Source: a virus. Taken from it: DNA of 64,000 bases. The stretch is taken from IMG/VR virus record IMGVR_UViG_3300046170_000449, positions 14,034-78,033 of that record; one strand, 5' to 3'. The notes beneath the pieces were generated by a model. That model had not been told where the DNA came from. It did no database searches and worked only from the letters and a program-made list of their open reading frames with translations. Positions 52,038-64,000 of this stretch are shown in pieces. A program made the translations under genes and the position numbers. Within the stretch, counting starts at the first letter, position 1, and each line of letters starts with the position of its first letter.

Positions 52038-52044
52038 GGTAGAA

Positions 52045-52095
52045 CGTTCACCAGCTTTTGGCTGGCGCATAACAACAGGCTTGGAACGGGGCTTG
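52045..52095 (+). ncRNA. Glutamine-II (Downstream-peptide) riboswitch
   Basis: CGTTCA-CCAGC.TTTG.GCTGG-CGCA...GGAACGGG with CGTTC/GAACG pairing, upstream of a DUF4278 gene. Confidence 0.8.
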
Positions 52096-52113
52096 TTTTA
52101 TCGGAGAACTCCA

Positions 52114-53937: not shown

Positions 53938-54014
53938 TGGTAGGAATGGTGGGACTCGAACCCACACTGTAGCGATTTTAAATCGCTTGCCTCTGCCAAT
54001 TGGGCTACACTCCT
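53938..54014 (-). tRNA. tRNA-Leu(UAA) with encoded CCA and short variable loop
   Basis: AGGAGTG acceptor, AGCGA-TTTAAAA-TCGCT anticodon arm, GTGGG-TTCGAGT-CCCAC T arm. Confidence 0.9.
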
Positions 54015-54079: not shown

Positions 54080-55852
54080 TCAAGATTGTAACTGAACTTC
54101 GCGGATATACAATGCTTTTTTAAGCTGATGTTCAACAATGGCACGATCAATGTCGTTGAGTCTGGCATTGCCAACGTCTGCTATCTGAGAGACGTGCATT
54201 ACACCGTTCTCAACTATTAGTTGTACAGTGTAACGAGGCTTGTTATCAATCATGACCAGTACAATCATGTGTCTGTACTTCTTAATACCGTCTGCATAGC
54301 TATGGGAGCCGACGCAGTTACGTACTGCGCGGCCCCAATGAGCGAGCATGTGTGTATCAAGTGGTTGCAAGAACGTATAGGTATTAACTACCTCAGGTTC
54401 TGCCAGTGTGATGTCACCTTTGAGTGGTACTTTGATTGGTTCAGGGAATAGTTTCTGGGGTAATGAAGTCAATGGATTGTCTAGCTTCCATGTCTCTGCC
54501 ATGAGGTGATCATGCCATTCAGTCATGCGCCAACGTCTTGGCTTAAGCTTAGCTGGATCTGTACCAGCTGCAATACATTGGGTAAGCATGGCGTATGTAT
54601 CGCTCCATTCGTACGTATTCATGTGTACGTTACCTGTTATGTTGTTAATTCTTTGACGTGACTTACATTCTTTAGATGCTTCTATTACTTTGTCATATTG
54701 TTTTCTTAACATATTCAAGAAAGATTCAACAGGTAAGTTGGCACGTAACCATTCGTATCCTGTCTCAGAATGATACCCATGCATCTCGATACGAGATAGG
54801 TAATCATATCTTGAACGTAAGTAGTTGATATCCATGTCACGCCATATGCACTTAATGTGGCATACAGACTCAATGAATATCTGTAGTTCGCTATAAGGTT
54901 GTATCAATAGGTCTAAGTTAAATTCTTGCTTAGCATTCTCTGTGTCATATATAGTTTGTAGCTTATCCATTGCAGTGACTACCATGCGACGGAACCATTT
55001 AGATTCCCATACGTCTGTTAGCCATGGGTTCTTATAGTGATTAGAGATCTTTTGCAATACATCATTGATGTCATGTACGTAAGAACTCTTTATAATGTTT
55101 AACCATTTAGGACGTGTGTGACTATGTGTTAAGAGCTTAGATAAGCCTGTGTCTTTATTAGCTACGCGTTCAAATACATTACGTGAGAAGCCACCTTTGT
55201 AAGTAGGTATCTTGCTTAGTAAGCATGCTTCCCATTTAGTAACAGCTTCCCATATAAAGATTCCATTACCCCGTGATGAAATGTGATGAGTATTGCGATC
55301 AATGCCTTTCCAGTAACTAGATGTATAACCATCTTGGATTGCTACATCGTTAACTAATAATGTATCTCTATACCAATATGACTTACCATCTTTAACGTGT
55401 TGCATTTCTCTTTGTTTGTATTGGTCATCATCTGCCTTAGATGATTGAAGCATGTTGGTGTAACATGCCTTACGTCCTGCTGCTGTGTCCTTATAGGTAT
55501 AGCTCAGTCCGTAGTAATAAGTATCTTCTTCTTTCTGTGGTAACCATGCGGCTACCCATAGTTGTTTGTAGTAGTAGATAACTGCTACTGGCTGAGGATC
55601 TTCACCGAACACTGGTCGTGTGATAAGGCGTACCTTACCTTCGCATGCTTTCGTATTGTTGATGTGTTCAACAGCTTCTTCCCATGTTCTATCGTTAACA
55701 ATGTGAGTTGGTATGAGGTTAGATGGTCTGCCATTGTACAACCAAGCACTTCTTGAGGAGCTGCGTCTGGGATTGGCTTTCTTAGCTTTTTTAAGGGTCT
55801 TGTCATAGGACAGGACTTGCTTTTGGAGTTGGGATGGCAAGTTAAAGTACAT
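54080..55852 (-). CDS. PcfJ-domain protein
   Basis: C-terminal EWHDHL ... LAHWGRAVRNCVGS..Y...Q.....N. Confidence 0.75.
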   Translation of the reverse strand: MYFNLPSQLQKQVLSYDKTLKKAKKANPRRSSSRSAWLYNGRPSNLIPTHIVNDRTWEEAVEHINNTKACEGKVRLITRPVFGEDPQPVAVIYYYKQLWVAAWLPQKEEDTYYYGLSYTYKDTAAGRKACYTNMLQSSKADDDQYKQREMQHVKDGKSYWYRDTLLVNDVAIQDGYTSSYWKGIDRNTHHISSRGNGIFIWEAVTKWEACLLSKIPTYKGGFSRNVFERVANKDTGLSKLLTHSHTRPKWLNIIKSSYVHDINDVLQKISNHYKNPWLTDVWESKWFRRMVVTAMDKLQTIYDTENAKQEFNLDLLIQPYSELQIFIESVCHIKCIWRDMDINYLRSRYDYLSRIEMHGYHSETGYEWLRANLPVESFLNMLRKQYDKVIEASKECKSRQRINNITGNVHMNTYEWSDTYAMLTQCIAAGTDPAKLKPRRWRMTEWHDHLMAETWKLDNPLTSLPQKLFPEPIKVPLKGDITLAEPEVVNTYTFLQPLDTHMLAHWGRAVRNCVGSHSYADGIKKYRHMIVLVMIDNKPRYTVQLIVENGVMHVSQIADVGNARLNDIDRAIVEHQLKKALYIREVQLQS

Positions 55853-59207: not shown

Positions 59208-59875
59208 GATTAAGCATGTTAGATCAAGCCGAGTAGCCGTGGCCAGGCATCTGGATGATCAGGTTCTAGCTCATTCTCTCCTACTGGATCGAGAGCGACT
59301 TCACCTAAGCATTCTTCTTCTACTTGTCCATTGGTTGGTACAGGATACCAGCCTTCGACTAAGTAGCTGTAAGACATTCCATTTTCATCTGGGCCATAGT
59401 TGGGATGCTCTTCACTAGGCTCCCAATAGATCATAAGTTCTCCTCGTTTGGTGCGATAAGTGCTACCACTTTTGGGGAGCTTGTCTTTCGTTGGGTCGTA
59501 GTTGACTTCCGCTTGGAATTGGTTGTCCCTCTCTTCTTCTGGGAAGGGGGTATAACCAAAGGCAACTGCGATGATTTCTGATGCTCTATCGAATGTGGAG
59601 TTAGGCATGATCCTATTTCAGTGATGATGATGGTGATGAGAGCAAGGACCACATCAATAATGTGATCCTCGTGTTGAGAGCCAGTAGTCATGCTGTTGGT
59701 GGTGGTGATGCAACAAAGCTATCACCTTCCTCCATGAGTTCTTGCATTACTTTCTCCTGCTCATCTGCAATATCATTGAGCATGAAGAAGTAATCTTGAC
59801 GCAGCTCCTCAAGAAGTGCTTGGTTGTACAGGTGTTGTTTGATTAAAGACATGATGTGATTTGGTTGAGTGTACA

Positions 59876-59911: not shown

Positions 59912-60364
59912 CTAGCTATGAATATGTTTCCATATCTTCTTATGTTTAATTAATGAAATATTTGATGTACAAATGTTATAAAGTTTAGCTAATTTATGTT
60001 GTGACAACGGTGAATTGTATATTTCCATGGCTTGTTTGTCTGTAAGTTTTGAATTGCCATTGTATTGCCCTTTAGCTTGACGCTTACGTTCTTGTCTATC
60101 TTTCATGTTATTTGCATGTGTACCCAAGATTAAATGACTTGGATTAGAGCAAAGCCTATTGTCACAAGTATGTCTTACCATAAGACCGTCAGGAATTTCA
60201 CCTTTGGTTAATGTATAAGCAACACGATGTGCCGGGGACAATTGATTGTTTAATCTAAATTGACCATAACCATCTAAATAAGTACAAGCAGTCCACTCCC
60301 AGCAGCATTCGCTGGGAGCTGGATTTACTTTAGACCAGAATCTGTGTGCAAATGTCATGGTCAC
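59912..60364 (-). CDS. HNH homing endonuclease
   Basis: RFWSKV, CWEWT, GYG, AHRVAY, VRHTCDNRLCSNPSHL..GT...NMKD. Confidence 0.92.
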   Translation of the reverse strand: MTMTFAHRFWSKVNPAPSECCWEWTACTYLDGYGQFRLNNQLSPAHRVAYTLTKGEIPDGLMVRHTCDNRLCSNPSHLILGTHANNMKDRQERKRQAKGQYNGNSKLTDKQAMEIYNSPLSQHKLAKLYNICTSNISLIKHKKIWKHIHS

Positions 60365-61180: not shown

Positions 61181-61575
61181 TGATGGTTCATACTAAAGTC
61201 GGGGATTCATAGATGAAACCTTTCTCGAATAGCTTCCATGCTTTATAGATAGCAGCACGGATCTCTTCTCGGTTGTTATAGATCACCACTACTCCTTCCC
61301 ATGCAAGCTGGGTGAGTAGGATGATGAGTGCAATTGTATGTACGACCAGCCATTTAAGTGGTCGATGTAGATGTTGTCGATAGAACTTACCGAAAGCATA
61401 GCCTGCTTTGTAGGTGTTCCTGATGCAGTTGCTAAGGAAGTTAATACATAGCAAGATGGCTGTGATGCTGAAGAGTTCACTGCCTAATGCATAGATACGC
61501 AATGCAGCAGTGATGAAGCTGTCAAGGTGTGACAGGATGTGAAAAGTAGTCATTGGTTTGATGTGTAATGTTTAG

Positions 61576-63459
61576 TGCCCCCTCGTGTAAAGAATGAGGA
61601 GGCGATACCTAGCCAAGGCATTGAACCCTGGCAGTCAGCCTGTACTGATTAGGTGTTAACGCCGTGCTCTATCGAGTGCCCAAAGGCAACAACCAAGAGC
61701 AAGCATTGTTGGTCCAGCGACAGCAGTGCCAACTCCCATGATTCCAAGTGTTGCGGCATTAGCAATTAATTGCTTGTCATCTTCTGTCAGTCCAGAAAAT
61801 GGACCGTTAATCTCAGGTTCAGAGATTACGTTACCTTTGTTGTCGAATTGATGAGTCATGCTGTTATGTAATAGATGCCACCGAAATGTGGCAATACCTG
61901 ACCGGGGCCTCGAAGGCCCCAGTTCAAGTTTAGTGATCAGTTAGCTGTGCAGTCAACAGTTGGTCCGTTACCACCCATGGTTTGCCTTCCATGCTTTGTA
62001 TCGCTGCTGTTGCTCAGCTTGGCTCTTATCATAGATAGAAGCTTTCTCTGCAGGACATGTGTGGACACGTCCTTTGGGTGAGACGTAGACATAGCTGCCG
62101 TCTTCTTGACGCTCGCCGCGATGAATCGCAAGCTCCTCGTCGTTGTATTCGTAACCGACCTTGACTCTGTGAGTTTTAGCAAGGCCGTCTTCGTTGGTCC
62201 ACTCTGCTGCTAATTGATACAAGCCATTGGATAAAACAACAGCTTGGACAACGGGCATGAGTGTACGGAGTGTTTGCAACATGATGTTGTGTGATTGATG
62301 CCACGGGATTGTGGCAATAACTGGACCAGGGTTTGCACCTGGTCACCCGCGTTGACGGATCAGTTGGTTGGATAACCGTAGCTCTGGCAGAACTCCATGT
62401 GTACAGCATAAGACTCAACAGGCCAGTCATTGTTAAGACACTGCTTACGTGTTGCACCTTCTAATACTTTAGGTAGTACAACCGCAGTACTAATCGTACC
62501 GAGGGCTAGTACAAGTGTACCGATAAACATGATAGGTGCAGAAGCAAATGCTTTTGAGATAAACATGATGTGATGTAATAGATGCCACGGGATTGTGGCA
62601 ATAGTTGGACCGGGGCTTGCACTCGGCCTCCCGCTTTGACGGATCAACTCCTAACCAATTCTTCACGAATGAAGTACTGATCACCTGCTAACAGATATGG
62701 TTTGTGGTAGTCAATGAACTCATTAGCCGCATTACGGCTCATGAAAACACCACTAACCACGAAGTTCTGCCAAGTTTCACGGCTTTCTAAAAAATAAACT
62801 TCAGAAAGCATGACGAGGTAGACCTTGATTTCTGATGCTCTATCGGCCACAGAAATCTCCTGTTGTGCGGTACCCATCTCCGCTGTGGGTAATAGTTGAG
62901 TGGGAGATTCGATCTCCCAGCATCACACCTGGTCAGATGACCATCTCAACTGGAGACTCCATCATTTCCGTAAAAGAAAAGACAGATATCTCTGCGAGCT
63001 CCTCTACAGGATTACCGAAGTTGTAATTGTGCTCGACCGAAAGATCGAACGCAACTGAGTCGGCCTCCTCTTTGCAGAAGTGTGCGCTGTGTTGTTGACC
63101 GTTGAGGATGACGAAGAACACGTCAGTCGCTCCGAGTGTGCGGTACCCATCTCCGCTGTGGGTAATGCCTGGGAGGGGAATCGAACCCCTCCTACACCAT
63201 CAGGCGAGTTCTTCACGACAGCGTTGATCAGCTGTGCGCTCTTGTAATTGAGCAACAGCAATAACCAAAGCTTTGTCAAGAGTAACAGGATGTCCTGCAT
63301 CTTTAGCAACTTCTTTAAAGCTGGCTGCAGTCTCAACAATGTACTTGAGACATTCTTCGAGGTTGTCAGGATACATGATGTGATGTAATAGATGCCACGG
63401 GATTGTGGCAATAGTTGGACCGGGGGTTGCACCCGGCCTCCCGCTTTGACGGATCAACT
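61576..63459 (-). repeat. Motif C: seven tRNA-T-arm-like intergenic repeats (61576-61654, 61857-61925, 62280-62365, 62564-62649, 62871-62920, 63144-63205, 63374-63459)
   Basis: 62564-62649 and 63374-63459 differ at 2 positions; 62864-62893 equals 63137-63166; the others share the fold with compensatory changes. Confidence 0.85.
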
Positions 63460-63672
63460 TACGAACTCAGCTGTTACCTTTGCGTAATAGTCACGAGCCT
63501 GTTGGACTGTAACCTTTGTGCTTTGGTCATTGAACTTAGTTCCTTTGAATGCTCTCTTAGTTATGTAAGCAACATCTAAGTCACTTACGATTTGAAACTC
63601 GAAGTAAAACTTCTCAGTTACGAAAGCAATTGTTTGAGTTTGCATTGGAATTAATGCTGTGGTTTGCATTGA

Positions 63673-63699
63673 AAGCTACGTTTAACGTCCAGCTTGACG
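63673..63699 (-). ncRNA. Motif B copy 3
   Basis: CGTC-AAGCTG-GACG-TTAAACGT-AGCTT. Confidence 0.7.
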
Positions 63700-63720
63700 A
63701 TCAACTTACTTGCTTCAAAT

Positions 63721-63739
63721 GAGAATGATTATCATTCCA
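63721..63739. promoter_or_regulatory. Fur-box-like palindrome upstream of the early gene array
   Basis: GAATGAT-T-ATCATTC perfect 7-1-7 palindrome; 15/19 match to GATAATGATAATCATTATC on the - strand. Confidence 0.45.
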
Positions 63740-64000
63740 CTTAAACTTAAATACTTTCTAAACAAAACCGCGCTGGGTTTCTCTCCCAAAATGCGCGGGA
63801 AGTCGAGGTTAATGGCCTAAGTTTAGACACAATTAGTAACATATTCAGTTATTTCTAACTTTCACGTTACTTTCACGTTAAACTAAACTTAATTCCAACC
63901 TTACTTCCCTATACTTTCTATACTCTCATCTCTTTCCCACCCTATACAATCCCGCCCTTTCTTTTTTTTCTACCCAGGTTCCCAGTCGGAGACACTGTGT

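Follow-up and report, generated by a model that had tools for sequence, protein, structure and literature searches.

What is the folded repeat that occupies every spacer of a small-gene array in a cyanophage genome, and what does it do for the genes on either side? The window analysed here, a stretch of 64,000 nucleotides, comprises bases 14034-78033 of a 78,033-bp IMG/VR virus record. Its source is an uncultured S-EIV1-like cyanophage, and Synechococcus phage S-EIVl is the sole isolate with nucleotide similarity to the record. On the minus strand of the window, eight open reading frames (ORFs), g1 to g8 (63669-61188), are separated by seven spacers, and all seven (61554-63459) share the plan of one composite element. 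The element is genuine: a conserved structured RNA, not catalogued before and specific to S-EIV1-like cyanophages. It is not a promoter, not an intrinsic terminator and not an integron.

Architecture, fold and distribution of the element

The element consists, in this order, of a junction (J), a 3-nt AUU or AUC linker, a hairpin (H) and a C/A-rich leader that runs to the next start codon and is unpaired in the predicted folds. J, a three- or four-way junction, opens with the final codon and UGA stop of the ORF upstream. It holds one or two small hairpins together with a GC-rich hairpin, which stacks on an outer stem of 5 to 7 bp. The stop codon sits inside this outer stem, at a distance of 43-45 nt in most copies. 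The GC-rich hairpin carries a T-loop-like 7-nt loop, replaced in one copy by a UUCG tetraloop; over the seven spacers the loops read UGCAACC, UUCGAUU, AUCGAAU, UGCAAGC, UGCAAAC, UUCG and UUCAAUG. In form I of J the T-like stem and the outer stem directly below it make 12 bp (5+7), in form II 11 bp (6+5), and the 3' strand is fully paired. H begins with UUGCC or UUACC and occurs in the window as GCCAC-N6-GUGGC (four copies), ACCCA..UGGGU (two copies) and GCCUCCUC..GAGGGGGC (one copy).

A first-pass annotation of this DNA, made from its letters alone, had described the GC-rich stem with a T-loop-like loop in seven consecutive spacers, five named outer stems often overlapping the upstream stop codon, an AUU or AUC followed by a second hairpin of the GCCAC/GUGGC or ACCCA/UGGGU type, and two nearly identical copies. 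All of these are present, the second hairpin having the one further type given above. The two copies are 98% identical over 87 nt and belong to an 87-nt repeat family with four copies. Closure into a junction had been claimed for five copies; these do close, and so do the other two, spacer 3 through a 7-bp AGUUGAG/CUCAACU stem and spacer 6 through a stem around an ancestral UGA. The H pattern was matched four times against 0.15 matches expected by chance. Fold z-scores ranged from -2.4 to -4.1 in five of the seven spacers, with spacers 2 and 4 near background when taken alone (-1.2 and -0.5).

The fold is maintained by compensatory changes. Thirty-two distinct form-I copies were picked by hand and aligned with a hand-drawn structure, and in this alignment 97% of the cells are paired and compensatory changes occur in 11 of the 22 pairs. 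The covariation score is 0.428 versus 0.131 in shuffles, none of 500 reaching it, and slid partners gave at most 0.11. A covariance model, R1, was built from the same alignment. A covariance search had been proposed in the first-pass annotation, and it brought out strong covariation: compensatory changes were found in 19 of the 22 pairs, including four of the six in H, among 123 distinct model-aligned copies, a count that leans towards the model since the copies were fitted to it. G.U pairs, among them one invariant U.G, place the fold on the sense strand and so point to RNA. For the form-II copies RNAalifold recovered inner hairpins only, because the outer stems were misaligned, and single folds were used instead.

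H also exists in versions related by paired substitutions, with stems GCCAC/GUGGC, ACCC/GGGU, GCCC/GGGC, GCCU/AGGC, GCCACCC/GGGUGGC, GCCACUC/GAGUGGC and GCCUCCUC/GAGGGGGC, and form-I J pairs with four H types. Another type, UUGCCU-N11-AGGCA with ..GCAGAGAU.. in the loop, stands ahead of two other cassettes of the closest relative, L026 (838-870 and 1748-1775). In the ACCCA-type H the loop contains GGAG and the 3' arm an AUG (window 63145-63163 and 62872-62890, minus strand; loci L006, L017 and L058-L061). In some cassettes this AUG starts a gene (MGTA...), in others a frame of 8-19 codons. A conserved start or leader peptide was considered here and rejected, given that sister variants carry AUA and that the MGTA... 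frames often span no more than 8-19 codons.

Within a genome the element is restricted to a single array of small ORFans, which forms the promoter-proximal end of a leftward block of genes. R1 gave five clear matches and one weak match in the 78-kb genome, all within one 2-kb array, and the array genes are the first genes of the leftward block, adjoining the point from which large plus-strand genes diverge. In 608 kb of related IMG/VR phage loci there were 162 matches, and each of five near-complete relatives has one cluster of two to five. S-EIVl (KJ410740) carries two copies, near 43.43-43.50 kb and 43.72-43.80 kb, in a matching layout with the leftward block beside divergent large plus-strand genes; no other record matched R1 among 50,697 phage records. 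Because this phage is in culture, the processing and cassette-exchange models discussed below are directly testable. Exact-pattern scans of IMG/VR located two of the H types in 45 and 15 loci, and the S-EIV1-like cyanophages are a widespread, little-studied lineage.

Searched for in bacteria and archaea, the H pattern turned up as 75 single matches in genomes of unrelated taxa, where we estimate about 69 by chance, and provided no host lead; the element is not cellular, since this count is about the chance level. No Rfam family matches the element. Permissive thresholds returned matches at chance level and a 17-nt match to the T-arm of cyano_tmRNA (13 bits, in J2), which were discarded. The element is thus a well-supported structured RNA family absent from Rfam, in which a T-loop-like module is fused to stop codons.

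Exchange of cassettes among related phages

Comparison of gene order and content between the repeats, as suggested in the first-pass annotation, revealed that the order is not fixed in the relatives. Close relatives share segments of 75-96% nucleotide identity with the window, in which the order is 1-2-3-4-5-6-7-8-9. In L040 and L026 together the order is 1-2-5-6-X-Y-7-9-8, and in L023 it is 1-2-5'-7-6-8-9. Over all loci, 10 of 33 upstream gene clusters have at least two downstream partners, and at least two upstream partners were found for 12 of 25 downstream clusters.

The edges of these changes locate the exchange. A 557-nt segment present only in the window begins with the first base of H2 and ends with the last base of J4 (edges 63161/63160 and 62604/62603), and the resolved indel edges fall between J and H. 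Despite changed neighbours, J7 stays with the g7 homologue in L023, and H7 stays with the g8 homologue in both L023 and L026. Pairs that share only the upstream gene have a J identity of 0.85 against a background of 0.67, with H at its background of 0.73; pairs that share only the downstream gene have a median H identity of 0.83 against a background of 0.67, with J at background. J travels with the upstream gene and H with the downstream one, and therefore relatives shuffle units of the form H-leader-ORF-J, which are exchanged at the linker between J and H. This defines, at base resolution, a shuffling unit for accessory genes that is bounded by each gene's own 5' and 3' RNA modules.

Probable punctuation of the array transcript and competing explanations

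On balance, we think the element probably punctuates the mRNA of a polycistronic early transcript, which host RNase E or RNase Z would cut in the linker, with the modules doubling as recombination homology as promoter-early stem-loops (PeSLs) do in T4-like phages. The array would be transcribed as one early polycistronic RNA. RNase E is one candidate for the host endonuclease: cuts between AACU and AUU, or between CAGUU and AUU, would fit the cyanobacterial signature of A at -4/-3 and U at +2 (PMC8682795), which the linker context matches. For the second candidate, RNase Z, J would pass as an acceptor/T-arm minihelix, and the enzyme would cut after the base following it, at nearly the same bond. 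In either case the upstream mRNA would end in a protective J, and the downstream mRNA would start with two or three free bases and then a protective H. A hairpin near the 5' end shields mRNA against 5'-end-dependent decay in E. coli. The conserved modules would insulate each cistron and supply homology for cassette exchange; if they do free cistrons from their neighbours, they could serve as insulator parts in cyanobacterial operon design. RNase P is unlikely to cut on the 5' side of J, as the upstream gene would then lose its stop codon. A real tRNA-Leu (53938-54014, by ARAGORN) lies on the same strand as the array, further along the leftward block, and host tRNA-processing enzymes would therefore act on any transcript that includes it. 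Within the elements the promoter scan found nothing sigma-70-like, and on the array's minus strand there is no terminator-like site and no U-tract after the hairpins.

Several points weigh against this punctuation model. The single-stranded linker, just 3-4 nt long, leaves RNase E little room. Neither the sigma-70 scan nor manual inspection of the divergent region ahead of g1, where no candidate was convincing, located a promoter for the array, and we infer "early" from position alone. The pairs in the comparison of J and H linkage are not mutually independent. In the public runs (Logan contigs) the stretch is present in two DNA runs, with contigs broken at the repeats, and one metatranscriptome holds pieces of relatives; the runs were covered as assembled contigs, which cannot show transcript starts or ends, and they yielded no usable ends. 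Finally, one spacer in L023 is without J and H, so the element is not indispensable for every gene. That spacer has collapsed to 28 nt between a g5-like gene and g7 (L023 7180-7205); the remainder reads ...CAACUAUU joined to the leader, and the loss looks as if it occurred between short CUAUU repeats flanking H.

Punctuation by structured spacers has precedents. The early genes of T7 have RNase III sites in their spacers, bulged hairpins of about 20 bp, and cleavage leaves the upstream mRNA with a 3' hairpin. The array resembles this in its structured spacer RNA and its presumed early polycistronic transcript; it differs in that cleavage is a prediction and the longest single helix is only 7-9 bp (helices 4-9 bp), too short for RNase III. 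Mitochondrial tRNA punctuation, plant mitochondrial t-elements and mascRNA use tRNAs or tRNA-like signals. Here the likeness lies in an acceptor-like stem on a T-arm-like hairpin at the 3' end of coding units, with a real tRNA on the same strand; the differences are that J has neither an anticodon arm nor a match to a tRNA model, that the stop codon occupies the 5' strand of the outer stem, and that cleavage is again predicted.

How far this second likeness goes can be judged from J itself. The closing G-C pair and the loop bases U, C, A and A are invariant in the 32 form-I copies. The loop pattern is U-(G/U)-C-A-A-N-N in form I and (A/U)-U-C-R-A-N-N in form II. The GC-rich hairpin agrees with T-arm positions G53, U54, C56, A58 and C61, with mostly G at the equivalent of base 55, and in six of the seven window copies the 7-nt loop has U54, C56 and A58 and is closed by a G-C pair, as in a T-arm. 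Form II has the canonical 5-bp stem and 7-nt loop, and one of its subtypes is a small four-way junction. J lacks an anticodon arm (5-bp stem, 7-nt loop); its other arms have stems of 3-5 bp and loops of 4-5 nt. The Rfam tRNA model has no match in 61400-64000 even at E<=10; ARAGORN reported only the tRNA-Leu at default settings and nothing on the element strand of the array at 80% of its threshold. For these reasons J resembles a tRNA elbow and is not a tRNA. A looser ARAGORN setting produced scattered calls on both strands and was not used.

Punctuation by a tRNA mimic, one of the ideas of the first-pass annotation, is plausible as judged from the predicted folds. In its strict form RNase Z would cut after the base following the outer stem, RNase P might cut on the 5' side, and the 3' end might pass to tRNA enzymes such as the CCA-adding enzyme. 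The coaxial stack of 12 or 11 bp with no unpaired base on its 3' strand, the invariant closing pair and loop pattern, the canonical stem and loop and the four-way subtype of form II, and the tRNA on the same strand all speak for it, and the known substrates of RNase P extend beyond tRNAs to phage RNAs and operon mRNAs, among others (PMC11143913). We nevertheless consider strict mimicry unlikely: besides the failed tRNA searches, the missing anticodon arm and the G at base 55, one window copy has a UUCG tetraloop in place of a T-like loop, and cleavage by RNase P would delete the stop codon of the upstream gene.

An explanation that dispenses with cleavage is that J and H are self-folding insulators, which would keep the leaders open next to any neighbouring cassette and block 3' exonucleases or ribosome run-on, and that they serve mainly as portable recombination homology. 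The independent assortment of J and H, with form-I J found beside four H types, suits this idea, as do the unpaired leaders and the linkage of J to the upstream and H to the downstream gene. The two 98%-identical window copies have unrelated flanking genes, as gene conversion or recent exchange would predict. Insulation leaves unexplained the invariant loop sequences, the fixed position of the stop codon in the outer stem and the strictly conserved linker, and it appears distinctly unlikely to us.

A bolder combination is that H-ORF-J units are true mobile cassettes whose movement targets the (U)AUUGCC linker, without an integrase and for instance as excised circles, and that J is in addition a tRNA-elbow mimic whose 3' end would be made by RNase Z and then handled by tRNA enzymes. 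We regard it as quite improbable. If true, it would describe a promoterless, RNA-defined "phage integron" in which the unit of exchange is the unit of mRNA processing.

The closest known parallel to the cassettes is the PeSL of T4-like phages, a repeated intergenic motif that spans the gap between an ORFan's stop codon and the start codon of the following ORFan (Arbiol et al. 2010, PMC2839356; Comeau et al. 2014, PMC4122927). PeSLs are concentrated in a hyperplastic region, for the most part ahead of ORFans, form a stable stem-loop that acts as terminator or attenuator, mark points of indel or replacement of small genes, and combine a sigma-70 consensus promoter (-35, -10, AT-rich upstream region) with a simple terminator hairpin; exchange between neighbouring motifs can give mini-circles (PMC2839356, PMC4122927). 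As with PeSLs, our composite motifs repeat in one ORFan region from stop to start, and the indel and replacement edges of relatives fall at the motifs. Stable covarying helices are present in the array, with no U-tract, and no promoter was detected; the structure is a covarying multi-helix junction, with its T-loop-like hairpin over the stop codon, plus a second hairpin. The lineage, S-EIV1-like cyanophages, is unrelated to T4-like phages. The cassette idea is supported in a PeSL-like and not an integron-like sense, which extends the PeSL idea past T4-like phages and past promoter-based motifs.

That the element is itself a promoter plus terminator of the PeSL type is very improbable. UUGCCA at the start of H resembles a -35 box, and the architecture of stop codon, structure and start codon is shared. 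No TANNNT -10 box lies 16-18 bp from UUGCCA in any H type, and the position is unconserved among copies. Moreover, the substitutions in the H stems are compensatory, as expected of a hairpin but not of a fixed sequence bound by a protein, and J has no U-tract.

The first-pass annotation had instead proposed integron-like reshuffling of repeat-plus-ORF cassettes. The shuffling part holds, given the permuted orders and the linkage of J and H; the mechanism finds no support. In an integron-like site-specific system the folded repeats would be sites for a dedicated recombinase and the cassettes would occur as excised circles. The array does recall integron attC arrays in its same-orientation small ORFs, each followed by an imperfect folded repeat, in its variable order, and in exchange within a short conserved linker. 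Against this, the PF00589 tyrosine recombinase model had no match in the complete genome but did in 14 of 14 control genomes. The element copies do not have the core sites RYYYAAC ... GTTRRRY in this order; some copies have GUUG.../...CAAC, opposite to the attC order, and most have CUGA.../...CAG. The fold lies on the mRNA strand, its G.U pairs and fixed link to stop and start codons point to RNA, and the exchange point lies between two different modules. No joints of excised circles were seen in DNA contigs, which are weak evidence on this matter. We find such a system hardly credible. Decoys for anticodon nucleases or other tRNA-targeting defences, also suggested in the first pass, have T-arm likeness alone in their favour and a negligible chance of being right, because J has no anticodon stem-loop and its small hairpin has a 4-nt loop.

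Array genes and genome context

Positions of the array ORFs and element modules in the window (scores: z, fold z-score; bits, match to R1)
Feature	Position	Strand	Description	Scores
g1	63454..63669	-	First array ORF, 71 aa, ORFan	
J1	63413..63459	-	Form I; outer AGUUG/CAACU (contains g1 UGA), CCGU-CAAA-GCGG, GGCCGGG-UGCAACC-CCCGGUC	z -2.6; 95 bits
Linker, H1, leader	63377..63412	-	AUU; (U)GCCAC-AAUCCC-GUGGC(A); 16-nt C/A-rich leader to g2 AUG	
g2	63200..63376	-	58 aa	
J2	63167..63205	-	Outer GCCUG/CAGGC (contains g2 UGA), T-arm-like GGAGGGG-UUCGAUU-CCCCUCC	24.6 bits (weak)
Linker, H2, leader	63122..63166	-	AUU; (U)ACCCA-CAGCGGAGA-UGGGU(A); leader with GGAG ahead of g3 GUG	
g3	62933..63121	-	62 aa, GUG start; missing at this position in the two closest relatives	
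J3	62894..62951	-	Form II; 7-bp outer AGUUGAG/CUCAACU reaching into g3 coding; arm UGGUC-AUCU-GACCA contains g3 UGA; T-arm-like hairpin loop AUCGAAU	z -2.4
Linker, H3	62872..62893	-	AUU; ACCCA/UGGGU type, GGAG in loop, g4 AUG in 3' arm	
g4	62644..62877	-	77 aa; missing at this position in the two closest relatives	
J4	62603..62649	-	Form I; 98% identical to J1+H1 over 87 nt; one weakened T-like-stem pair	
Linker, H4, leader	62567..62602	-	AUU; GCCAC/GUGGC; leader	
g5	62360..62566	-	68 aa, small hydrophobic protein, paralogous family	
J5	62319..62365	-	Form I; outer AACUG/CAGUU, T-like loop UGCAAAC	z -3.6; 93 bits
Linker, H5, leader	62283..62318	-	AUU; GCCAC/GUGGC; leader	
g6	61968..62282	-	104 aa; shortened by 1-nt insertion relative to relatives	
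J6	61896..61942	-	Variant; GGGGCC-UUCG-GGCCCC replaces T-like loop	z -4.0; 41.7 bits
Linker, H6, leader	61860..61895	-	AUU; GCCAC-AUUUCG-GUGGC; leader	
g7	61656..61859	-	67 aa	
J7	61607..61654	-	Three-way; outer ACCUA/UAGGU, UCAGU-ACAG-GCUGA, T-like GCCAGGG-UUCAAUG-CCUUGGC	z -4.1; 43.7 bits
Linker, H7, leader	61554..61606	-	AUC; GCCUCCUC..GAGGGGGC; leader to g8	
g8	61188..61553	-	121 aa; last gene with an element ahead of it	

The seven ORFs that precede a spacer, g1 to g7, have no PHROG match. The array ORFs evolve as coding sequence; differences between homologues are biased to the third codon position, for example between g1 and its counterparts in L023 and L040. The homologue of J3 in L012 is predicted to fold as a four-way junction. 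Spacer 6 is long solely because g6 carries a 1-nt insertion relative to two relatives (AAGGCAAACC versus AAGCAAACC in L026 and L023), which ends the gene about 10 codons early (61968-62010); the ancestral g6 stop is the UGA at 61937-61939, within J6. Also in spacer 6, upstream of J6, is the sole sigma-70-like site near the array (TTGACT, 18 nt, TAAACT; 61927-61956, minus strand), of which the closest relative retains just a part. Upstream of g1, positions 63686-63709 (minus strand) resemble the 5' half of a form-I J (GUAAGUUGAUC-GUCAA-GCUGGA) and may be the remnant of a further cassette boundary.

Genes of the record include those for a family A DNA polymerase and a primase-helicase; the large ORFs that were scanned included no recognisable RNA polymerase. 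The record has a 241-bp terminal repeat, which was considered as the physical end of the genome and judged uncertain because another record of the same class has the array 21 kb from its end. A glutamine-II riboswitch aptamer (52042-52097, plus strand) scores 41 bits, more than the gathering score, and speaks for a picocyanobacterial host, marine or freshwater.

Among the small genes is one for an HNH homing-type endonuclease (59912-60364, minus strand; PHROG E 2.5e-32). The homologous segments that flank it are directly adjacent in L026, nothing separating them, so the HNH gene looks recently inserted. A perfect 33-nt inverted repeat (55735-55767 and 59798-59830) has arms 4 kb apart, both inside minus-strand ORFs, which could pair if present on one transcript. 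An exact 20-nt direct repeat (59572-59591 and 62826-62845) lies in two different small ORFs and encodes ...DRASEI... in each.

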